From an uncultured Alphaproteobacteria bacterium (GTDB lineage Bacteria; Pseudomonadota; Alphaproteobacteria; RF32; CAG-239): a stretch of 64,000 nucleotides of DNA. This document shows, one piece after another, positions 11,743 to 54,579 of this stretch. Where the stretch lies: positions 8,279-72,278 of the forward strand of contig CALXUN010000002.1 in the NCBI GenBank assembly GCA_944391705.1, written 5' to 3'. Position numbers and translations under genes: made by a program. The first letter of the stretch is position 1. Every line of letters begins with the position of its first letter. The notes under the pieces are model-generated. The model had not been told where the DNA came from. It was given only the letters and a program-made list of their open reading frames with translations, and searched no databases.

Positions 11743-11985
11743 GTGCAAAGCTTTACACCAAAAAAAACAAAAGTACCAAGTGTTTTTAAAATATTTTATC
11801 ATCTGTTTTTTAGATGACGCTTTGAAACACTTAATTCACGGAAGCAAACATACTTGAGGAAGAACAGTAACAAACAGTAGGTTGTAACTTATCCCCTACA
11901 AGACTCTTTAAAATTGCAAAAAAAAAAAACAGTTTAGAATGACGGGCAAATCAGTATTTTTTGCAATTTTTCAGGAGTTCTTTGG

Positions 11986-12720
11986 ATGAAACATAATCTT
12001 TTTTCATTCTTATGCAGAGGGCTGCAGATGCGCCGTAACTTTTTAACGACGTGTACGATATCGGGTACACAAGGAAAAAAGTTACAAGCAGATATTGCTC
12101 TATGCGGAAGAAGCATGGTGGAGATGTTGGGGGTACTGGCAATTATTGGTGTGCTTTCGGTCGGCGCTATCTCGGGTTATTCCAAGGCGATGATGAAATA
12201 CAAACTCAACAAACAAGCCGAGCAATTAAGCTGGCTGTTTAACATTATCTATCAATACAAAGGACAGTTCGTTTTTGATAAGAAAACTTCCATGATACCT
12301 TTATTTACCAAATTAAATTTAATTGACCAAAATATGATACGTGCTGATAAAAAAGAAACAATCTACGATTCTTTCGGCAATGCCATCGCTATAGCCAACA
12401 ACAACGGCCCGAAGTTCAATGAAATTGTCTTGAATATGGGTTTACCGAAAAGCAGTTCTAACCGCTTGGCGATTTGTCAAAATGTTTTTAACGTTGCTAA
12501 AGCCCACAGTCCTTACCTGCTTTACATTCGCACCGACAACAGAGAAAGCCAAAGTGAGCCGGTAACCCCTTCCGATATGTATTACGGCGATAGCCTTTGC
12601 CAAAGTCGGGGAAATGGTGTAAATTGTATACGTTACGCAACTCTTGAAAACATTTATAATGTCTGCCAAAATTGTGATGAAATGCCAATTTGTTATTTTT
12701 CTATCACGTGGCGCATATAA
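11986..12720 (+). CDS. Prepilin-like protein (type IV pilin or pseudopilin N-terminal domain), paralog 1
   Basis: Class-III signal: ...ALCG|RSMVEMLGVLAIIGVLSVGAISGY, with Glu at +5 after the conserved Gly and a hydrophobic alpha1 helix. C-terminal Cys cluster (CQNCDEMPICY). Unusually long 40-aa leader. Terminator at 12748-12781. Confidence 0.65.
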   Translation: MKHNLFSFLCRGLQMRRNFLTTCTISGTQGKKLQADIALCGRSMVEMLGVLAIIGVLSVGAISGYSKAMMKYKLNKQAEQLSWLFNIIYQYKGQFVFDKKTSMIPLFTKLNLIDQNMIRADKKETIYDSFGNAIAIANNNGPKFNEIVLNMGLPKSSSNRLAICQNVFNVAKAHSPYLLYIRTDNRESQSEPVTPSDMYYGDSLCQSRGNGVNCIRYATLENIYNVCQNCDEMPICYFSITWRI

Positions 12721-20363: not shown

Positions 20364-20716
20364 AATCGCTTTTCTCCATAATTAAATTTTCCTGCGCCAT
20401 ATAATGACAGCACCTTATAAAATACACAACCTAAATTATAGGACAATCCAATCAACAATTATTTCTAAATTGTCGTAAACACAAACGCCATAACACAGAT
20501 TCCTTAAAAAAATGGTATACAGACACCTGATTAAATCAAAACAAAAATCTTCCTGATTTCCCGGAGCAAGACCTGTTTAAAGAGAGCAAAAAAACGTACC
20601 GGAAGTATGCTCTCCTTTGCGCCAAAAGAATCTTTAAAGTTGCAAAAAAAAAAACGGTTTAGAATGACGCGTAAATCTTATTTGTTTTGTAATTTTTGTA
20701 ACTTTGGAGATTTTTT

Positions 20717-21553
20717 ATGAAACCTTGGTTTTCTTTATTCTTACGCAGAATGTTGCAGATGCGCCGTAACTTTCTGACGACGTGTACAACATTAGGTACA
20801 CGAGGAGAAAAGTTGCAAGCAGATGCGACTTTTTCCGGAAGAAACGAACGACCGCAGAACCGGACAGATGCGAAGCCTTGTTTGAGCGACGTGTACAAAA
20901 TGAGTACACGAGCGAAAAGAAGGCAAACAGATGTTCGGTTATCCGGTCGTTCTATGGTGGAGATGTTGGGAGTTTTAGCAATTATTGGAGTTTTAAGTGT
21001 TGGCGTTATCTCGGGCTATTCCAAAGCCATGATGAAGTATAAACTCAACCGACAAACAGAACAAATCGGTAGTATTCTAGATTATGTTCTGATTAATTCT
21101 GATAAGTTTAATCACGATACTTCCATAGCATTTATTTCATTATTATATAAATTGAATGCCATTCCGGTGGAAATGATAAGGGAAGATTGGATCTACGGCT
21201 ATGCTTATGACATATTCGGCAATAAAGTATATCTGAATGACAATAATGATGGAAATAATATTTATTATAGTTTATCCGTTTCCATCAGTAAATACTCGCG
21301 CGAAATTTGTATGAATTTATACCAAATGGCCAAGCTCCGTTCTGCCAATTTATGGCAAACCGTGTTTAATAAAGACACCCAAAGTTCTTCCATGGAACAC
21401 ACCAACAGAGTATGGGGCGATTCTTATTGCAGCAAATCAGTTACTTGCCTCAAAGATTTAAGCTTAACACAAATGGACGAACTTTGTTCAGCATGTGACG
21501 ATTCTCAAACCTATTGTAGATTTTATATTTTATGGGGTCGGATCAAACCTTAA
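20717..21553 (+). CDS. Prepilin-like protein, paralog 2, with a duplicated leader module
   Basis: Identical mature N-terminus G|RSMVEMLGVLAIIGVLSVGVISGYSKAMMKYKLN. The 77-aa leader contains a tandem duplication of the leader module. Divergent C-terminal domain with a Cys cluster (CSACDDSQTYC). Confidence 0.6.
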   Translation: MKPWFSLFLRRMLQMRRNFLTTCTTLGTRGEKLQADATFSGRNERPQNRTDAKPCLSDVYKMSTRAKRRQTDVRLSGRSMVEMLGVLAIIGVLSVGVISGYSKAMMKYKLNRQTEQIGSILDYVLINSDKFNHDTSIAFISLLYKLNAIPVEMIREDWIYGYAYDIFGNKVYLNDNNDGNNIYYSLSVSISKYSREICMNLYQMAKLRSANLWQTVFNKDTQSSSMEHTNRVWGDSYCSKSVTCLKDLSLTQMDELCSACDDSQTYCRFYILWGRIKP

Positions 21554-21661
21554 AATTAAACATGAATATCACACAAGTCCATTTATAAATTTTGCAAAAT
21601 TGCAACCTCGCTTCTTATCAAGTCATTAAAAAAACAAAGACATTCTTACGTGTTATACCAA

Positions 21662-22125
21662 CCACCATCCGGTCAAGCCGCTTAAAAAGTTCGGATAACG
21701 AGTCAGATACGACGAACCCCTTTTTACATAAGAAGCACAAAGAATTAGACAGTTACGAAGAAAGCTTTCTTGTACCGCCAAACCAACGCCTGATTAAGCC
21801 GCTAAAAAAACAACAACCGCCCAAACACAAAGTCCGCCACCATTCCGTCAAGCCGCTTAAAAAGTTCGGATAACGAGTCAGATACGCCCCCTTTTTACAT
21901 AAGAAGTTCAGAGAATTAAACTGATACGAAGAAAGCTTTCTTGCACCGCCAAACTAACGCCTGATTAAGCCGCTAAAAAAAACAACAACCGCCCGGACAC
22001 AAAGTCCGCCACCATTCCGTCAAGCCGCTTAAAAAGTTCGGATAACGAGTCAGATACGACGAACCCCTTTTTACGCAGTGTACCCAAAATAGTACATAAG
22101 TAAAAAGGGGTTCAAGTAGATGACC
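21662..22125. repeat. Tandem direct repeat of about 175 bp, about 2.4 copies, ending in a hairpin
   Basis: Units begin at 21662, 21837 and 22009 (CCACCATYCCGTCAAGCCGCTTAAAAAGTTCGGATAACGAGTCAGATACG...). The last unit carries a 21-nt insertion containing GTGTAC-N8-GTACAT inside the hairpin AACCCCTTTTTAC...GTAAAAAGGGGTT. Confidence 0.85.
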
Positions 22126-22139
22126 GTTAGACGAACTTT

Positions 22140-23150
22140 TTAGAAGTGGTCGTCACATTTTTTAATCAACTCTTCAATATTTTCCGGCGGCCAACCCGGG
22201 GTTTCCATACCAAGATGAATGCCCATCTTAGCCAGAACTTCTTTGATTTCATTCAAAGACTTGCGGCCAAAGTTCGGTGTGCGAAGCATTTCGGCTTCGG
22301 TCTTCTGAACCAAATCGCCGATATAGACGATGTTATCATTTTTAAGGCAGTTTGCTGAACGAACGGAAAGTTCAAGCTCTTCAACCTTCTTCAAAAGATT
22401 ACGATTGAACGGCAGTTCTTCCTTAACATCTTCAACTTCATTTTCCGGTTCATCAAAGTTAATGAACGGTTTGAGCTGATCTTGCAAAATACGAGCCGCA
22501 TAAGCAACTGCATCTTCCGGAGAAACAACACCGTTGGTTTCAACAGTCAATGTCAGTTTATCGTAATCGGTAATCTGTCCGACACGGGTATTGTCTACTT
22601 TGTAAGAAACTTTTTTAACCGGTGAATAAATTGCATCAACCGCAATCAACCCAATCGGAGCATCTGCCGGTTTGTTCTGATAAGCCGGAACATAACCTTT
22701 ACCGGTATCCACGGTTAATTCCATGGAAATTTTTGCACCGGCATCCAGATTGCAGATAACATGATCCGGATTCATGATTTCGACATCATGACCGGTCTCA
22801 ATCATCGCAGCCGTTACCGTGCACGGACCTTCGGCTTTCAAAGTCATCATTTTCTGACCTTCGCTGTGAACGGCAACAGCCAGCCCTTTAACATTCAGGA
22901 CGATATCCGTCACGTCTTCGCGGACACCCGGAATAACTGAAAATTCATGCAGCACGCCGTCAATTTTGATAGCCGTTACCGCGCCACCCTGTAAAGATGA
23001 AAGCAAAACTCTGCGCAGAGCATTGCCCAAAGTCAGACCAAAACCTCTCTCCAGGGGTTCTACCACTATCTTAGCCTTATTTCCGCCTTCGCCGGAAGTA
23101 ACTTCTAAATTAGTTGGTTTAATAAGTTCTTGCCAATTCTTCTGAATCAC
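22140..23150 (-). CDS. rpoA: DNA-directed RNA polymerase alpha subunit
   Basis: 336 aa. NTD and CTD are typical of RpoA. Lies downstream of rpsK in the alpha operon. Confidence 0.95.
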
Positions 23151-23247: not shown

Positions 23248-23640
23248 TTAAACGCGACGTCTTTTTCTCAAACGGCAGCCGTTATGTGGAATCGGGGTAA
23301 CATCACGAATTGATGTGATTGTAAACCCGACAACCTGCAATGCTCTGATTGCCGATTCTCTGCCCGAACCCGGACCTTTGACTTCGACTTCCAAAGTTTT
23401 CATACCGTTTTCCTGGGCTTTTCTGCCGGCTTCTTCAGCGGCAACCTGTGCGGCATACGGGGTGGATTTACGAGAACCTTTAAAACCCTGTGCACCGGCT
23501 GTCGACCAGGCAACTGTGTTGCCCTGGGCATCGGTAATTGTTACTCTGGTATTGTTAAACGTAGAATTCACGTGGGCAACGCCGGAAGTGATATTCTTTT
23601 TTTCTTTTTTCTTAACACGTTGTGTTACTGCTTTAGCCAT
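23248..23640 (-). CDS. rpsK: 30S ribosomal protein S11
   Basis: Conserved S11 sequence and operon position. Confidence 0.95.
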
Positions 23641-23651
23641 TGCAACCTCGC

Positions 23652-24020
23652 TTACTTCTTCTTATTCGCAACTGTCTTGCGTTTACCTTTACGGGTACGG
23701 GCATTTTGCTTGGTGCTTTGTCCGCGTACCGGTAAACCTTTACGATGCCTTAAACCTCTGTAACATCCAAGATCCATCAATCTTTTGATGTTAACGCCAA
23801 CTTCGCGACGCAGTTCACCTTCCACCAGATAATCACGATCAATTACTTCGCGGATTTTGGCAACTTCTTCATCATTTAAGTCCTGCACGCGACGGTCAAC
23901 AGAAATTCCCGATTTTGCACAAATGTCTTGAGCAGTTTTTCTTCCGATGCCGAAAATATACGTCAGTGCGATTTCTATTCTCTTGGCCGTCGGAATATTT
24001 ACGCCAGCTATACGAGCCAA
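23652..24020 (-). CDS. rpsM: 30S ribosomal protein S13
   Basis: [10 protein letters not shown] start and conserved S13 sequence. Confidence 0.95.
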
Positions 24021-26223: not shown

Positions 26224-26372
26224 TTCTTCTTCCTTAAATTAATTTTAAAACACACATAAGAAGGGCGTTAAAACCCTTTTTGCATACTCTAATACACAAA
26301 TTAAAAATTTATTGCAACAATTTTCTCTTTATCCTCAGTTTTTTACCGGAAGCTTACCAAGCGCTGTTGAGA

Positions 26373-26891
26373 CTATCCGTTTTCCGCCTGTTTGCCATGT
26401 TCCTCAGCCAAACGGACAAGTTTGGGGTCAGCACCGATAATCCGCCAACGTCTCACACCGGGCATAATCATATAATCCAAGGCGTTGCCTAAAAAAATAA
26501 AATGATACCACCCTTTCGGAATAACAAAATGGCGGCAGCCTTCCAAAAAGAGTTTGCCGACAGTAACCCCGGGGGCAATCTCAAATCCGGAAGCACCACT
26601 TAAATTAACCTCATCATATTTCAAGGCCGGAACCCGGGCATTGCGTGACGAACTTAAAATCAGACTGTTGATTTTGGCCTCCTCATCAATATGAAATTCA
26701 TCAGCCTGGTTAAGAAAAATCCGGCCGTATTTGCCTTTGGGAATATTGGCGCGATAGGTATTGTTTAAAATAAGGACATTGATTTTGACGCCGGGTTCAA
26801 TGTAAAAGCCTTTGGCACGACTTAAATCCACCCTTTCATAAGAGCCTTTTTCAATCGTCACGCCAAAAGTATCCTGCAGACTGAGCTTCAT
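26373..26891 (-). CDS. Hypothetical protein with an internal tandem repeat of about 60 aa, inserted between rplO and secY
   Basis: Repeat ERVDLSRAKGFYIEPGVKINVLILNNTYRANIPKGKYGRIFLNQ versus DEVNLSGASGFEIAPGVTVGKLFLEGCRHFVIPKGWYHFIFLGN. No known domain recognised. Confidence 0.5.
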   Translation of the reverse strand: MKLSLQDTFGVTIEKGSYERVDLSRAKGFYIEPGVKINVLILNNTYRANIPKGKYGRIFLNQADEFHIDEEAKINSLILSSSRNARVPALKYDEVNLSGASGFEIAPGVTVGKLFLEGCRHFVIPKGWYHFIFLGNALDYMIMPGVRRWRIIGADPKLVRLAEEHGKQAENG

Positions 26892-27409
26892 TTCCTTTCT
26901 CCCGCACGTCTGACATTATCAGAATATAAAAAAAACACCTGTTCGTCAATAATTTTATTAATTTTTAATCCGTCTCACCGCAAAGCAAGACGGATTAAAA
27001 GTTTTCCATTTACATACCGGATTTTTTATTTTGGCACAACGGCTTTCGGGGCTTCCGTTTGAGAGGTTGGAGCCGTTTGAAGCTGAGTTTGTTCTTCACT
27101 TTCCTCTTCTGCCTCAAGCTCCCCTTCTTCCGGCTCGTATTGTTTCTCGTCAATTAATTTGACCGAAAACCATTGCCGTCGCCAAAGGTGCCGAGTATAT
27201 CCCCGCAAACCCCGAATTGCTGGAAACGTATTTTGCTTTTTATTTCAATGTATCGTTATGGGGCGGCTTGTTGGCAATCGTACTGGCATTTTTGTATATA
27301 ATAAAACAACACCTTGCCAAAACCAAAACTTCATAAAACTAAGAGTACACTGTTCGCTGACAGTCTTTAGCAACACTTATCCTTAAAAAAAACAAGGATA
27401 TGCAACACA

Positions 27410-27447
27410 AAAAAGCGGAAGTTTTTCTTCCGCCTTTTTTATTGTAT
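27410..27447. terminator. Bidirectional intrinsic terminator immediately downstream of rplO
   Basis: GCGGAAG-TTTTT-CTTCCGC with T-runs on both strands. Confidence 0.7.
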
Positions 27448-27465
27448 CTGCCTGTAAGCTTTCGC

Positions 27466-27921: not shown

Positions 27922-28079
27922 TGTTCTTCACCTAACTAATTTTTAATTTTACTATAAAAAGTCTTGTCATAAACAGGTTTCGATAAGCAGGCCTGCTGTT
28001 GTCCAAACTGTAAGCGCCGTATACAAATAGATACACAAGCAATCAAATCAGACAACTTGAAGCCTGCTTTATAAAACCG

Positions 28080-28262
28080 TTATTCCTCGACTTTAACGAG
28101 GTGGCTCACCTTCTTAATCATGCCGCGAACAGCCGGTGTATCTTCCAGCACAGCGGTACGATTCATCTTGTTTAAGCCTAAGCCGATTAAAGTTGCTCTC
28201 TGGTCTTTCGGTTTGCCGATCGGGCTTGCGATCTGAGTAACTTTTAATGTCTTCTTAGCCAT
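28080..28262 (-). CDS. rpmD: 50S ribosomal protein L30
   Basis: 60 aa with conserved L30 sequence. Confidence 0.9.
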
Positions 28263-48876: not shown

Positions 48877-48915
48877 CCAACCCCCGCATTGGGATGCGGG
48901 GGTTGGTTTGATTTA
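48877..48915. terminator. Strong bidirectional terminator
   Basis: AACCAACCCCCGCATTGGGATGCGGGGGTTGGTTT. Confidence 0.8.
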
Positions 48916-50823
48916 TTGTTTTTTAGTTGGTGCTTTGGTTACGTAGTTGTGATTACTGTTATAATCATAACATAGCTCAAAGCATCCATCTGTAACCATA
49001 ACATATGGAACAGAATTGGGATTTGGATTTTTCTTACCGGGTGTCCAGTGGTTATCCTCAGGCTTGGTGAAACATTCATATTCAGCGGTATGGTATTGTC
49101 CATCCGGGCACAATTGACATTTGTAACAAGTGTCATTACCTGCATATCCAACTGTACTTTCATAACCATAATATGGTGAATTATAGCATTCCGAACGGTT
49201 TGTCGTAATACCAGGTCCGGTCGGACAGGTTTTGGCTTTACATTTGTAACAACTTACATCACCTGAGCCGTTTTCATTAGCTTCAATAATGCTTGTATCC
49301 AATTCCCATCCGCCACTTTGGCCGCATTCTGAAACATCTTTAACAAAGCCGTCTATGCAAATACATTTATAACACTGTCTATCACCCCGATAAGAATCAC
49401 CCAATGTTGAACTCATATTCACGCCACAGAACCTTAGCACTGAATTCATACCAAATTCGTCTGTTGCGCATGACTTAGTTTCACATTGATAACACCCTGC
49501 CTCATCGGTATCCGTACCAAGCTTCCAGCCCTTTGTTCCGGTTTTCCCGCAATCAGCTGCCGTTTTTGCATAACCATCCGTACATTGAAGCGTTACGCAT
49601 TTATAACAACCCTTAACTGTAGCGTGTTCTTGAAGCGTTTGTCCGACAAAACAGGCTTGGAGCCGATTTGCAGAATAACCGGCAGGACAATCTTTAACAC
49701 ATCGATAACATCCTGTATCGCCGGCATAAGCCGTCGAATGATATTCCGCCTTATAATCACTACGGCAAATACCTAAATCTCCGGCAGTATATCCTGTAGG
49801 ACAGGATTTGGCTGCACAAGCACCGCAAACAATTACTTTATTGCCGCTGACAACCTTTTTAGTGTATATATTCCATCCGGCGCTCCCTGAATCACCGCAA
49901 TCTTCAACTTTTTGATACTTGGAAGAAGAACCAGCCGGACACACATCATCGTCGGTTTCTTCTTGACCTGGACAATACATATAACTTGAATCAAACGGGC
50001 ATTTAACCCCGGTTGTTCCGTCATCACATTTTGTTGCCTTGACATAACCAAGGGTTGCACAATCCGTAACCGTTGTTTGCGTCACATTGCACCAATATGC
50101 TTCCAGATTAATCTGTCCTTCTTCGCTGCAGGTTTCTGCACTGCAAAGATAGCAATTATCATGACCGTTATAAACCTGTTCGACCAGCGTTGTACAACCA
50201 TCTGTCCGGGAGCTGCATTCTTCGGTCGAATAGCTGTCATCGCAAATACAATAAGGATACCAGCGGCTGCCGTCCGGTTCCTCGCAATAATCCGTACCGC
50301 TTGGTTCTTTTAAACCTCTCTCATCGCAGCTATACGGATAAACAGTTCGGGAACAAGCACATTCCTCATATCTGATAGATCCATCAGCAGGGCTCCTACA
50401 GGAATCTCCGCTGCCGGATGCATTAGTATAGTCAGCACAACTTTCATACGGATAACGAGCCGGATTGCAAATGGTTTCAGAACCGGCACAGCCGCACACC
50501 GAATTAAAAGTTCCGGTACAAATATATTTACCATTTTCCAAATCCAAAACATTATCGCTGTTACAGCTGCAACGATAATATGTTTTGTCATTATAAATAC
50601 AAGTTTGCTCCTGATAACCTTCCGGACATGGCGTTGTCCGATCATATCCCTGACATCCCGTACCAAGCCAGCTGCTGTTGTCAATACAACCGTCACCATT
50701 TAAAACGCCGGGCAAAAAGCAGACTTTGGCTTCTGCATCTGCTGCCGCGATTAGTATAACCAACAGTAAAAATTTCGCCAATGTCCGCATACTCTTAAGC
50801 CCTTCAGATAACTTGCCGTTCAT
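48913..50823 (-). CDS. Secreted, extremely Cys-rich repeat protein, 636 aa
   Basis: Signal peptide MRTLAKFLLLVILIAAADAEA. About 7 tandem modules of 35-45 aa of the form C-[PT]-x-G-[YF]...G..GCY[KRQ]C... (GCYRCVKDCPAGY, GCYKCVTLQCTDGY, GCYQCETKSCATDEF, QCYKCICIDGF, SCYKCKAKTCPTGPG, TCYKCQLCPDGQY). Own promoter and an AGGAAAG RBS. Confidence 0.7.
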   Translation of the reverse strand: MNGKLSEGLKSMRTLAKFLLLVILIAAADAEAKVCFLPGVLNGDGCIDNSSWLGTGCQGYDRTTPCPEGYQEQTCIYNDKTYYRCSCNSDNVLDLENGKYICTGTFNSVCGCAGSETICNPARYPYESCADYTNASGSGDSCRSPADGSIRYEECACSRTVYPYSCDERGLKEPSGTDYCEEPDGSRWYPYCICDDSYSTEECSSRTDGCTTLVEQVYNGHDNCYLCSAETCSEEGQINLEAYWCNVTQTTVTDCATLGYVKATKCDDGTTGVKCPFDSSYMYCPGQEETDDDVCPAGSSSKYQKVEDCGDSGSAGWNIYTKKVVSGNKVIVCGACAAKSCPTGYTAGDLGICRSDYKAEYHSTAYAGDTGCYRCVKDCPAGYSANRLQACFVGQTLQEHATVKGCYKCVTLQCTDGYAKTAADCGKTGTKGWKLGTDTDEAGCYQCETKSCATDEFGMNSVLRFCGVNMSSTLGDSYRGDRQCYKCICIDGFVKDVSECGQSGGWELDTSIIEANENGSGDVSCYKCKAKTCPTGPGITTNRSECYNSPYYGYESTVGYAGNDTCYKCQLCPDGQYHTAEYECFTKPEDNHWTPGKKNPNPNSVPYVMVTDGCFELCYDYNSNHNYVTKAPTKKQ

Positions 50824-51681: not shown

Positions 51682-52368
51682 ATGAATGAACAAAAAAAAC
51701 CAACTGATGATACCATTCCTTATGTCGAATTTGCCGACAATGCCAATGAACGTACCCCCTGTGTGCTGGTTTTGGATTGCTCCGGCTCCATGCGCGGTGA
51801 ACCCATAAAACAGTTAAACGCCGGCTTAAGCGCTCTGGAAAAAGAACTGAAAGAAGACATTGATGCCAGCTCACGCGTTCAGCTTTTAATCATTAAAGCC
51901 TGCGGCAAAGACGAAGCCGTCATCAGCTCGGACTGGGTTGATGCCATGAACTTTACCGCGCCGGTTATGGAAGCCGGCGGTTTAACGCCGCTTGGCAAAG
52001 CCATGGAACTGGCTTTACAGAAAATCGAGGAACAAAAATGCCTTTACGACAGCTGCGGCGTTACCTCCAAACGTCCCTGGATATTTTTAATCAGCGACGG
52101 GGAACCCACCGACTACGGCTGGGAGCAGGCTGCCGAAAAATGCCGTTATGCCCAGCAGAATAAAAAAGTTATTATCCATGCCGTCGGCACTCAGGGGGCC
52201 AATTTGGAAAAGCTGGCAAAATTTTCCCTGATGTCGCCCAAACGCTTAACCGGGCTGAAATTTACCGAATTTTTCTTATGGCTGAGCCGCAGCGTTTCCT
52301 GTATTTCCAAAGCCGCCCCGAACGCGGATGATTTGCTTGAGGACATTAACGACTGGAATGATGAATAG
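51682..52368 (+). CDS. vWA-domain protein (TerY-like)
   Basis: MIDAS VLVLDCSGSMRGEP, ...T..., ISDGEPTD. RBS AAAGGA. Confidence 0.75.
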   Translation: MNEQKKPTDDTIPYVEFADNANERTPCVLVLDCSGSMRGEPIKQLNAGLSALEKELKEDIDASSRVQLLIIKACGKDEAVISSDWVDAMNFTAPVMEAGGLTPLGKAMELALQKIEEQKCLYDSCGVTSKRPWIFLISDGEPTDYGWEQAAEKCRYAQQNKKVIIHAVGTQGANLEKLAKFSLMSPKRLTGLKFTEFFLWLSRSVSCISKAAPNADDLLEDINDWNDE

Positions 52369-53107
52369 AAAACAGAACATACATATTGTTGCCGCCAGCG
52401 TAACCGGAACATATCACCGTGCCAAAAATCTTCCCTGTCAGGATTTTCATGCTCATGCCTGCCGGGGGAACAAGCTGGTTGCGGTTGTTTCCGACGGCGC
52501 GGGTTCGGCAAAATATGGTAAAATCGGTGCCAAAACCGTTTGCAGCACTTTATGCGATATTCTGATTTCCTGCCCGCTGGACGATATCCGCCAAAAAATT
52601 ATCGACGCTTTGGAAATTGCCCGCCAAAAGCTGATATATCACCGTTTTAACAAAACCAAAAGTGAAAACGGACTGGTTGATTTTGCCGCCACGGTTGTCG
52701 GTGCCGTCTATACCGGCAGCCGCGGCATATTTTTTCATATCGGTGACGGGGCCGCCATAGCTCTGGGAGATACAGCACAAAGCACCGTGGTTTCGCGCCC
52801 GGAAAACGGTTTGTTTTCCTGTGAAACTTATTTTTTTACCATGGACGACTGGAAAGACAGCCTGCGCTTCACCCCGTTTGAAAAAGCGCAAAGCCTGATG
52901 TTAATGACCGATGGTGTGACCGGTTTTGCTTTCACCAAAGATTACGACTGCCTGGAAAACAGGTTTATAGAACCGATTAACCGCTTTTTACGGGCTGAAC
53001 CCAACCGCCGCAAAGCCGTCCGTGCTTTAAACAACACATTGGGCACGCCGCGCGCCTGCCAATTAAATCCCGATGACAAAACGCTTTTATGGGTCGGTCT
53101 GAAATGA
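52358..53107 (+). CDS. PP2C-family Ser/Thr phosphatase
   Basis: VAVVSDGAGSAKYG and FHIGDGAAIAL metal-binding Asp motifs. Start overlaps the end of the vWA gene. Confidence 0.7.
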   Translation: MMNRKQNIHIVAASVTGTYHRAKNLPCQDFHAHACRGNKLVAVVSDGAGSAKYGKIGAKTVCSTLCDILISCPLDDIRQKIIDALEIARQKLIYHRFNKTKSENGLVDFAATVVGAVYTGSRGIFFHIGDGAAIALGDTAQSTVVSRPENGLFSCETYFFTMDDWKDSLRFTPFEKAQSLMLMTDGVTGFAFTKDYDCLENRFIEPINRFLRAEPNRRKAVRALNNTLGTPRACQLNPDDKTLLWVGLK

Positions 53108-54579
53108 ATCAAAACATAACTTCACAGGAAGCGGAATTTTTGTATTTTAACGCCATTTACGGCGACGGGCATTTTGAGCGTGAAAAGCTGGGCGAACTCT
53201 TAAACAAAGGTGGTGCTGCCGGCAAAATATATCGTGATGTCATTCACCCCGGGTTGGTAGCCAAAATCTTTCATGACCGCAGCAAAAGCCACACCAACCG
53301 CCAGAAGCTGGAAGCCATGCTGCACAACCGCCCGAACATTCCGCCGATTGTATATGACGGAAAAACTTATGTACAGATTGCCTGGCCGGAAGCGGTTTTG
53401 GAAGATGACGACGGCTTTTGCGTCGGCTATCTGATGCCGCTGATTAATATGAACGAGGCCGTTTCCTTAGACCACCTGATGCAAAAGGCCGTCCGTAAAA
53501 AACTGGGGCTTTCCGAAAGTTACAGCAACCGGCTGTATGCCGCTTATAATGTGGCCTCTATGGTTGCGGCATTGCACAAATGCGGCCATTACATTGTTGA
53601 CTTGAAACCGGCCAATGTTTCCGTTTACAAAGAAAACATGATTGTTGCCATGTTTGACTGCGACGGTTTTTCCATTAAGGGCGAAAAAGGGCGTTATCCG
53701 GCAGAATTTGTCAGTGAAGAATATATTTATCCGGAAGGAATGCAGCAAAATTGTGAGGAAATGGGCGAAGAACAGGATAAATTCGCTTTAGCCGTCATCA
53801 TATTCAAACTTTTAAACAACGGCATTCACCCCTTTTCCGGCACGCCGCGCAAATCTGGCAGCGAAATGCTGACCATTCAGACGCGGATTGAACAGTATCA
53901 TTACGCTTACGGCCTGTGGCCGGATTCTTATCAGGCGCCTAATCCTTACAGCATACACAATTATTTTGATAAAAAAACTTTGGAATTGTTTGACCGTGCC
54001 TTTTTAAAAGGCCAGAAACGTCCGTCTGCCAAAGAATGGCAGGAACACATGGAATATCTTTTCCGCAATTTAAAAACCTGCAAACAAAACCCGGATCATG
54101 TGTATTTTACATCCAGAGGCTGCGGTTTATGCGCCATTGAGGAAAAATTTAAGCAGAACATGGCCGCCGTCAAAGAAGAAAAAGCCATGCCGGTCAAAAT
54201 CCGCGGACTGGAAATATCCGAGCTTTCAACCGAAAAAACCGAACGTTTAAAACAAGAAAAACGCTTGAAGTTCATTAAACTGAACAAACTGACCTTAGCC
54301 GGCATCGTGCTATATCTTTTATTTTTCGGCAGCCTGTCGTTTATCCTAAAACCGGCGAAAGAGTTTCTGACATCGGGCGGTTATGCGCTGCAGCTGATTA
54401 TGATGGCCCTGCTTGTTAAAGTATTGTATACGGCAGGAAATCGCTTACAAGCCACTCTTCCGCTTTTAAAAAACCAGTCTTTGCTTAACATGCTTAAAAT
54501 TTATGCCCTGATTAACATCATTGTCGCATTTATTATCATAAACAATCTCGGTTTTGAAATTTTCCGGCCGGCCGGTTAA
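53104..54579 (+). CDS. Hanks-type Ser/Thr protein kinase with C-terminal coiled-coil and 2 TM helices
   Basis: Gly loop GGAAGKIY, VAKIF Lys, catalytic loop YIVDLKPANV, FDCDGF (DFG-like), YPE. ATGA start-stop overlap with the PP2C gene. Confidence 0.75.
   Translation: MNQNITSQEAEFLYFNAIYGDGHFEREKLGELLNKGGAAGKIYRDVIHPGLVAKIFHDRSKSHTNRQKLEAMLHNRPNIPPIVYDGKTYVQIAWPEAVLEDDDGFCVGYLMPLINMNEAVSLDHLMQKAVRKKLGLSESYSNRLYAAYNVASMVAALHKCGHYIVDLKPANVSVYKENMIVAMFDCDGFSIKGEKGRYPAEFVSEEYIYPEGMQQNCEEMGEEQDKFALAVIIFKLLNNGIHPFSGTPRKSGSEMLTIQTRIEQYHYAYGLWPDSYQAPNPYSIHNYFDKKTLELFDRAFLKGQKRPSAKEWQEHMEYLFRNLKTCKQNPDHVYFTSRGCGLCAIEEKFKQNMAAVKEEKAMPVKIRGLEISELSTEKTERLKQEKRLKFIKLNKLTLAGIVLYLLFFGSLSFILKPAKEFLTSGGYALQLIMMALLVKVLYTAGNRLQATLPLLKNQSLLNMLKIYALINIIVAFIIINNLGFEIFRPAG

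Follow-up and report, generated by a model that had tools for sequence, protein, structure and literature searches.

The rpoA 3′ flank

We analysed a window of 64 kb (64,000 nt) from contig CALXUN010000002.1 of an uncultured alphaproteobacterium of the order RF32, in which a secY-adk-rpsM-rpsK-rpoA operon lies on the minus strand, so that the downstream side of rpoA is at lower coordinates. The region 21560-22130 is the rpoA 3′ flank; it separates rpoA from a convergent plus-strand pilin-like gene (20717-21553) and had been singled out, in a sequence-only reading, for its tandem repeats and for the absence of rplQ. We found here an intact 117-nt hairpin module that begins at the rpoA stop codon, together with tandem repeat units that are derived, decayed copies of it. 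The module is a previously undescribed, clade-specific interspersed imperfect palindrome of about 117 nt, a new family of a known kind. Its copies were scored with R1, a covariance model built from 13 of them. The features at the rpoA end of the flank are as follows.

22140-23150, minus strand: rpoA (Pfam RNA_pol_A_bac, RNA_pol_L and RNA_pol_A_CTD)
22029-22145, plus strand: intact 117-nt three-tier hairpin module (R1 107.8 bits, E 6e-23); the strand named is the 'CAGAT' strand, antisense to rpoA
22125-22142, no strand assigned: 3′ arm of the outer stem, CGTTAGACGAACTTTTTA, which holds the rpoA stop codon (22140-22142) and pairs with 22030-22047 (18 nt, 89% complementary)
22061-22074, no strand assigned: 5′ arm of the inner stem, GAACCCCTTTTTAC, pairing with 22100-22113 (14 nt, 100% complementary)
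22100-22113, no strand assigned: 3′ arm of the inner stem, GTAAAAAGGGGTTC (repeat search and strain comparison)
22078-22097, no strand assigned: apical stem-loop GTGTAC-N8-GTACAT (pattern search)

Read from base to tip, the module in the window has first an outer stem, AAAAAGTTCG/CGAACTTTTT, within which the rpoA stop codon falls. Above it come a TAACG/CGTTA stem and a box whose unpaired G-A/G-A loop lies between GUCA/UGAC and UAC/GUA helices, and finally the 14-bp inner stem, which is topped by an apical GUGUAC/GUACAU stem with an 8-nt loop. Its minimum free energy (MFE) was -54 kcal/mol on the rpoA-sense strand (z -10.4) and -60 kcal/mol on the other strand (z -13.7). We also considered the G-A loop as a kink-turn (K-turn), which was dropped on geometry after inspection.

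The hairpin previously proposed around the palindromic motif is borne out by the fully complementary 14-nt arms. The 21 nt GCAGTGTACCCAAAATAGTAC (22075-22095), of which the apical stem-loop is the core, had been read as an insertion into the last repeat unit; this segment is indeed present only in the rpoA-proximal copy and is bracketed by TAC triplets, but it is the conserved apex of the intact module and not an insertion. Intact modules likewise adjoin the stop codon of rpoA in several further species (L016, L017, L018, L020, L094 and L107). In these, the inner stems are entirely different yet paired, and the box and apex are conserved. Among the relatives compared, contigs L001-L010 encode an identical RpoA protein, and L011-L021 are related metagenome-assembled genomes (MAGs) titled uncultured Alphaproteobacteria, 'Azospirillum' or 'Rickettsiales'. 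Within the window, GTGTAC-N8-GTACAY occurs at 12051, 20782 and 22078 and a version with a 7-nt spacer at 20891; the pattern search returned six matches over both strands, against 0.09 expected by chance. The copies at 12051, 20782 and 20891 uphold the earlier statement that the motif is shared with the leaders of pilin-like genes.

Beyond the intact copy, the tandem repeats were reproduced as about 2.4 units of 172-175 nt. Tandem Repeats Finder reported 21662-22074 with a period of 172, 2.4 copies and 91% matches, and the repeat search placed copies of an 83-nt repeat at 21629, 21804 and 21976, spaced by 175 and 172 nt. The remaining features of the flank are listed below.

21662-22074, no strand assigned: tandem array, period 172-175 nt, 2.4 copies (Tandem Repeats Finder and repeat search)
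21857-21945, plus strand: decayed module of the middle unit (R1 14.9 bits, E 1, model positions 1-116), without the apical hairpin and with a degenerate 3′ arm
21682-21774, plus strand: decayed module of the distal unit (R1 19.4 bits, E 0.084)
21599-21613, minus strand: exact 15-mer AAGCGAGGTTGCAAT, shared with the rpsM/rpsK junction (23639-23653)
21592-21873, plus strand: open reading frame (ORF) of 93 aa, judged spurious (no Pfam match)

Both distal units were matched by R1 weakly (E 0.08 and 1), yet across the full model. Compared with the intact copy they keep the 5′ outer arm, the box and the 5′ arm of the inner stem, whereas the apex between the two TAC triplets is gone and the 3′ half is degraded. 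They fold no better than shuffled sequences (z -0.84 for the middle unit and -0.13 for the distal one), against z -10.4 for the intact copy, and it is this loss of apex and folding that identifies them as derived copies. Similar arrays recur in the family (L115, L118, L096, L119, L114 and L091), with the gene-proximal copy intact and the distal ones lower-scoring or truncated. Listed from the gene outwards, the scores were 93/86/57 bits in L115, 94/69 in L096, 95/85 in L119 and 108/15/19 in the window. The units of 172-175 nt probably arose by unequal recombination or slippage between short repeats in the module and its flank. They are probably functionless, which would leave their number and length to drift between strains.

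The 93-aa ORF had already been suspected of being spurious, and our results agree. It has no Pfam match, its single NCBIfam match (15 bits against a cut-off of 450) was treated as noise, it runs through repeats whose unit length is not a multiple of three, and the gene calls of related contigs show no gene at its position. Coding repeat units were likewise dropped as a candidate, given the 4-nt indels between units and the lack of conservation of their ORFs. A promoter scan of the repeats gave no more sites than chance, and no tRNA or tmRNA was found in the 64 kb. The resemblance of this flank to the junction between the rpsM stop codon and the rpsK ribosome-binding site, previously given as 18 of 19 positions, holds as the exact 15-mer; 18 of 19 is reached only with a 1-nt gap. 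AAGCGAGGTTGCAAT occurs exactly twice, against about 0.07 chance 15-mer matches by our own estimate for a 570-nt region compared with the window, so its significance is modest, and no start codon follows the copy at 21599. It does not appear to be a footprint of rearrangement as had been suggested, being unlike the region upstream of rplQ in relatives and missing in L001, which carries a different pilin allele.

A module family at gene ends and in pilin leaders

We further examined the module in related MAGs and metagenomes. R1 matched copies outside its training set in other species (L018 and L019, 73-78 bits), and a pattern scan of metagenome contigs returned 36 stretches, two of which look like chance matches. 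In an alignment of 52 copies made with the covariance model, standard pairs filled 93.9% of the cells, compared with 72% in shuffles and about 40% when the partners were slid; cells changed on both sides numbered 304 against 78 in shuffles, which amounts to strong covariation. The family consensus repeats the tiers seen beside rpoA: an outer stem of an A-run and a T-run that holds the stop codon of the adjoining gene; a TAACG/CGTTA stem; a box of CAGATRCG opposite AAGYAGATG with unpaired G-A/G-A dinucleotides; an inner stem of 12-14 bp that differs in each copy; and a conserved apex, GTGTAC-N7/8-GTACAY. The apical stem (helix 5) is almost invariant in 50 distinct members.

No Rfam family matched at its gathering score anywhere in the window, and with E values of up to 10 the stretch 20400-22400 gave only chance-level matches to miRNA and Plasmodium families. 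A literature search for the motif returned nothing relevant. Viral contigs contained no match to the module and the 38 window ORFs scanned with Pfam held no transposase or integrase domain, and an origin from a phage or other mobile element was dropped as a candidate. Besides the copy at rpoA, the window contains four others, three of them inside the leaders of two pilin-like genes.

20843-20957, plus strand: module in the leader ORF of the first pilin-like gene (R1 112.7 bits; MFE -55 kcal/mol, z -8.8), whose 3′ outer arm encodes the G-R-S cleavage motif
20739-20842, plus strand: distal module in the same leader ORF (R1 82.5 bits)
12003-12118, plus strand: module in the 41-aa leader of the second pilin-like gene (R1 97.8 bits)
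27970-28085, plus strand: degenerate copy in the spacer between rpmD and rplO, on the strand opposite the operon (R1 E 0.16)
20717-21553, plus strand: pilin-like gene convergent with rpoA, with a 77-aa leader before G|RSMVEMLGVLAIIGVL
11986-12720, plus strand: second pilin-like gene, with a 41-aa leader

In relatives, strong copies lie inside or next to the ribosomal-protein genes that precede rpoA: between rpmD and rplO in L001 and L133, according to their gene tables, and, as placed by distance, some 5 kb ahead of rpoA in L018 and L019.

Most copies adjoin the end of a gene in a fixed register. In 27 modules the stop codon of the opposite-strand gene falls at an offset of -6 to +16 from the module start, most commonly at +3, and it is TAA in 25 of them. 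The genes that end at modules, named by reading their sequences and lengths, are unrelated housekeeping genes (rpoA, ileS, dnaK, thyA, recR, nusG, mutL, ftsK, trpS, accD, fabZ, rlmE and holA). Polarity relative to the gene is uniform across these gene-end copies, and further copies lie in frame in the long leaders of pilin-like genes. In sister species without a module after rpoA (L011-L015, L019 and L141), an ordinary terminator made of an A-tract, a GC hairpin and a T-tract occupies that place, and after thyA an ordinary terminator in L138 and L139 likewise corresponds to a module in L101 and L114. The outer stem of the module itself presents an A-run and a T-run in both directions.

The orientation of the copies also follows the composition of the strands. 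In the window all five copies lie on the plus strand, which is C-rich along the whole stretch, and across the family the CAGAT strand is the C-rich one at 26 of 28 loci. Every 8-kb bin gave a negative GC skew on the plus strand (-0.06 to -0.14), even where the genes are on that strand, and the minus strand is accordingly taken to be the leading strand across the window. The pilin-leader copies keep this absolute orientation even though they are sense to their gene. A single rule of orientation to the replication-skewed strand thus fits gene-end and pilin-leader copies better than a rule set by the transcript, which needs opposite orientations for the two.

The two pilin-like genes have a Shine-Dalgarno sequence and an ATG, from which 41 or 77 codons run through one or two modules before G|RSMVEMLGVL. 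The product carries the signature of type IV pilins and pseudopilins, G|RSMVEMLGVLAIIGVLSVG, with a leader ending in G, a hydrophobic N-terminal helix and Glu at +5; neither Pfam nor NCBIfam gave a match for the gene at 20717-21553. Homologues number in the thousands, one of them named pseudopilin PulG by JGI, and many begin MKSENG|RSMVEML, that is, with a 6-aa prepilin leader. Others have about 40 or 55-70 extra residues that resemble translated modules, and several of these have no in-frame start nearer the cleavage site; called lengths cluster near 205, 242-251 and 257-272 aa. Since the reading frame is open through the modules of the pilin leaders and closed by stops in the rpoA copy, the pilin-leader modules are very probably translated as part of a cleavable leader. 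The outer stem of these copies is built from the G-R-S codons. In-frame modules would imply prepilin leaders of 41-77 aa, far above the usual length.

Two side observations concern these genes. Their 5′ regions (11900-11990 and 20630-20720) are near-identical, with CTTTAAARTTGCAAAAAAAAAAA-CRGTTTAGAATGACG followed by the Shine-Dalgarno sequence and ATG, so that promoter, start codon, module and pilin were seemingly inherited as one unit. In L012 (11030-11240), two copies of another palindrome, AAAATGTCCGAAAAAAGGGATCCCTTTTTTCGGACAT, which is perfect, stand ahead of a pilin-like gene that follows rpoA on the same strand and has a 12-aa leader.

Strain variation and the uncoupled rplQ

Comparison of the contigs with identical RpoA protein revealed the variation in copy number between strains that the sequence-only reading had proposed to look for. 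The array measured 172 nt x 2.4 in the window, 122 nt x 3.4 in L001, 176 nt x 1.9 in L005 and 174 nt x 2.2 in L008, with about 1.3 copies in the others; in L004 an N gap lies inside the repeat. Units A and B of the window each occur singly in other strains (L002 and L006), as unequal crossing-over would give.

The module itself varies in a different manner. Between L002 and the window, rpoA differs at 2 of 1011 nt and the module at 18 of 125 positions, and the latter differences are confined to the inner stem and apex, as a swapped patch of about 60 nt. The inner stem of L002-L010 is formed by GCAAGCCCTGTCAC with GTGACAGGGCTTGC, which pair perfectly in L002, L003, L009 and L010 and with one mismatch in L005-L008. 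Downstream of rpoA, strains with identical RpoA have either a pilin gene (alleles of 273-282 aa), an ORF of 180 aa or no gene at all. A pilin cassette bounded by modules was considered and dropped, as the indel boundaries lie elsewhere (at about 20521 in the window, and inside a repeat unit).

Throughout the clade, the rpoA 3′ flank is a hot spot for insertions. In L141 (3619-5000), a 248-aa gene with no Pfam match and a purine-rich repetitive stretch lie between rpoA and rplQ; both are absent from the sister strain L142. Near-identical modules (94% over 125 nt, with the same inner stem) follow rpoA and fabZ on contigs of one assembly. In a comparison that also took in L094, we observed that L095 (1-1803) and L098 (645-2445) share 99.8% identity until the closing bases of a module, beyond which L095 runs into fabZ and L098 into rpoA; this junction reflects either a true rearrangement mediated by the module or a chimeric contig of the metagenome.

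As had been noted from the sequence, rplQ does not follow rpoA here, and the 64-kb window contains no L17 coding sequence. Searches by tblastn with three probes (approximate L17 sequences of Escherichia coli and Bacillus subtilis, and the L17 of a close relative) found nothing in the window or in L001-L010. Look-ups of homologues, clusters and contigs for the rplQ of the window species returned only other species, mostly with rplQ directly after rpoA. That is its place in all distant Alphaproteobacteria sampled, and it also follows rpoA in L014, L015, L016, L018 and the species behind L127, L133, L138 and L141; it does not in the window species, L011, L012, L013, L017, L019 and L020. In a neighbour-joining tree of RpoA, all of these uncoupled species except L019 fall into one clade, which indicates that the rpoA-rplQ linkage was lost long ago and not locally, and speaks against the earlier view of the missing rplQ as the footprint of a local rearrangement. 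In L016 and L018 the module lies between rpoA and rplQ. These results show in part that the absence of rplQ is a separate, much older, subclade-wide relocation unrelated to the repeats.

In one related lineage (L144-L153), rplQ was found between a galU-like gene and rpoB/rpoC with no module nearby, and an opposite-strand, strain-variable gene of 231-757 aa without a Pfam match lies between rplQ and rpoB. In L014, L015, L016 and L018, a conserved leader with a hairpin (TTATCCGCTTTGCC...GCAAAGCA) stands ahead of the rplQ start codon, at a distance of about 100 nt, and may be an rplQ-specific regulatory leader.

Other parts of the window deserve brief mention. The spc operon is broken between rplO and secY (26224-27465) by a 172-aa ORF (26373-26891; no Pfam or NCBIfam match) and about 900 nt of non-coding DNA; the same gap holds a zeta-toxin gene and three further ORFs in L001 (3863-6932) and measures only about 120 nt in the sister species L127. 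A plus-strand cluster at 51682-54579 encodes a von Willebrand factor A protein, the product of an adjacent ORF and a Ser/Thr protein kinase-like protein, and a 636-aa ORF at 48913-50823 has no Pfam match.

Known repeats and the possible role of the module

On balance, we consider it probable that the module is a bidirectional terminator or a 3′-end hairpin of the REP, ERIC or Correia kind. The array itself comprises one intact and two decayed copies. The intact copy would then form the transcript-end hairpin for both directions where rpoA and the pilin-like gene converge, and it might terminate transcription, protect the mRNA 3′ end, or do both. The main reason is that sister species have ordinary terminators at the same position.

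Several known systems resemble the module in part. Repetitive extragenic palindromic (REP) sequences with their composite BIME forms, and REPINs, are imperfect palindromes found in Enterobacteria and Pseudomonas in transcribed spacers at gene 3′ ends, where they protect upstream mRNA and occur in clusters. REPs are 20-40 nt long with a conserved GTAG head and occur in both orientations, and REPIN copies are near-identical within a genome and linked to RAYT. The module is similar in being an interspersed imperfect palindrome at gene 3′ ends, with compensatory stem changes and clusters; it is unlike them in its length of about 117 nt, single polarity, stop-codon register, conserved apex and copy-specific inner stem. 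Units of 20-40 nt with a GTAG head and inverted doublets are not what we see, as the module conserves CAGATRCG, AAGYAGATG and GTGTAC/GTACAY, and no transposase domain of the RAYT (Y1 transposase) kind was present among the 38 ORFs scanned, all of them in the window. ERIC (127 bp) and the Correia or NEMIS elements of Neisseria are hairpin repeats of 100-150 bp that alter mRNA processing or stability and are sometimes terminator-like. Their copies are alike over the full length and insert both ways round; terminal repeats of 26 bp and a duplicated TA mark Correia elements, and both kinds belong to other phyla. The module is likewise a hairpin repeat in transcribed spacers, a likeness of form, but its copies differ completely in the inner stem and share one polarity.

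Comparison with miniature inverted-repeat transposable elements (MITEs) gave a mixed picture: the whole unit is an inverted repeat, its ends (TA...TA) lie inside A/T runs so that a duplication cannot be scored, and inner stems are fully different between copies apart from one near-identical pair at different loci. Rickettsia palindromic elements (RPEs) are palindromic repeats of Alphaproteobacteria that lie in frame in genes and enter the mature regions of many proteins. Modules, too, lie in frame in the pilin leader ORFs with the frame kept open, a likeness of arrangement; in contrast to RPEs, the in-frame copies keep to a single protein family, where they occupy a leader that can be cleaved off, and the majority of modules lie between genes, at stop codons. 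With bidirectional intrinsic terminators the module shares an A-tract, hairpin and T-tract right after the stop codon and its site in sister species, but its stem is about 50 bp as against 5-14 bp, its internal loops and apex are conserved, its polarity is fixed and it also occurs inside an operon. It also recalls the attC sites of integrons (for example, the VCRs of Vibrio), imperfect palindromes of about 60-140 bp that begin at or close to the stop codon of the ORF before them, share one orientation and conserve structure over sequence. However, attC sites conserve their ends (RYYYAAC/GTTRRRY) and vary in the centre, whereas the module conserves its centre. GTTRRRY appears in the window copy only, the family having ATTAT, ATTAA or GTTAG there. 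The attC reading was dropped, since its boxes are not in the consensus, the flanking genes are core housekeeping genes in conserved order, and the window holds neither an integrase nor a cassette array.

A number of points weigh against a terminator or 3′-end hairpin, a role suggested by position and shape. A simple terminator scan called nothing at 22029-22145, although a hairpin of this size exceeds its limits, and about 50 bp is far longer than usual for terminators. About five copies in 64 kb are too few for the module to be this genome's general terminator, and efficient termination by the copies in the rpmD-rplO spacer would harm the operon. A plain terminator also needs no fixed polarity, no conserved unpaired G-A/G-A loop and no invariant apical sequence, and the polarity at 26 of 28 loci, pilin copies included, is better matched by a rule that acts on DNA and is tied to replication than by one that acts on transcripts. 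Polarity and the G-A/G-A loop together keep alive a reading of the module as a mobile element of single-stranded DNA: a non-autonomous, selfish hairpin repeat of the REP/REPIN-RAYT or IS200/IS605 kind, served by a transposase encoded elsewhere and oriented by the replication fork, with any terminator role incidental. We regard this as a real but unlikely alternative. It would cover gene-end and pilin copies by one rule, with CAGAT on the C-rich strand of lagging type, and is consistent with the fixed register of the TAA stop codon, the newest-looking array copy being the one next to the gene, the differing presence of modules between sister species and the near-identical modules after rpoA and fabZ, albeit these come from a metagenome assembly (JAEEGL) in which a single source genome is not proven. 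Recently active repeats would be expected to share inner-stem sequence, which the window copies do not; moreover, no transposase, recombinase or integrase domain occurs in the 38 window ORFs scanned with Pfam, no inverted pair of modules around a gene was seen, and gene orientation is confounded with the direction of replication.

A functional RNA on the CAGAT strand, acting after the pilin start codon as a cis-regulatory hairpin for translation or stability and at gene ends as an antisense hairpin RNA, seems to us doubtful. Pilin-type copies have 22 G-U pairs and no A-C mismatch, but these 22 cells come from few related sequences, and gene-end copies, with 20 of each, show no strand preference. 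Further in its favour, all copies whose hairpin is intact have their lower MFE on the CAGAT strand, the tandem G-A loop is structurally sensible on that strand only, a polymorphism in L003 keeps its pairing only as G-U there, and the outer stem of the pilin copies draws on the pilin's own G-R-S codons; the promoter scan, on the other hand, made no antisense promoter evident. Modules as site-specific or homologous crossover points, which would move pilin cassettes and rearrange the chromosome, the rpoA-rplQ split included, are very improbable. The variable gene content downstream of rpoA among strains with identical RpoA, the L095/L098 junction, the inner hairpin exchanged as a patch of about 60 nt between strains with 99.8% identical rpoA (nucleotide) and the 6-bp inverted arms with a 7-8-nt spacer, which resemble a recombinase core site, all point that way. 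Yet the boundaries of pilin presence and absence are not at modules, all apical loops have one orientation with no inverted variants seen, the window has no recombinase, the L098 junction could be a chimeric contig, and the loss of rplQ is clade-wide with no module at its relocated loci in relatives. Least credible of all is that the assembly is at fault or that a degraded rplQ is present. Repeats can be miscounted when short reads are assembled, and the scaffold L004 has an N gap inside one, but modules and repeats recur in independent assemblies from at least 10 samples with differing unit variants, the units differ by about 9% and can hence be assembled, and no frame shows similarity to L17.

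In place of a passive terminator, one broader picture is offered as speculation that we think rather unlikely: a new class of hairpin element, strand-polar and registered on the stop codon, oriented by the replication fork, whose inner stem is swapped as a cassette among near-identical strains and which was taken up, as an RNA switch, by the coding leaders of a large pilin family. If true, a mobile hairpin of single-stranded DNA would be tied to the control of pilus expression and to chromosome rearrangement, including the breakage of the alpha operon.

These gut and rumen Alphaproteobacteria are uncultured and known almost only from MAGs, and a recurrent 117-nt hairpin at gene ends yields spurious ORFs, scaffold gaps and possibly chimeric joins; knowledge of the module therefore aids both annotation and assembly. 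Array length and inner-stem allele differ among strains with identical RpoA and can serve as a strain-level marker. The family is unusual in that its polarity is fixed, its register is set by the stop codon, each copy has an inner stem of its own and copies are used in frame in pilin leaders. Should a dedicated protein or a mechanism coupled to replication lie behind the polarity and the conserved G-A loops, the family would be a clean system in which to follow the spread of hairpin repeats and their conversion into terminators.

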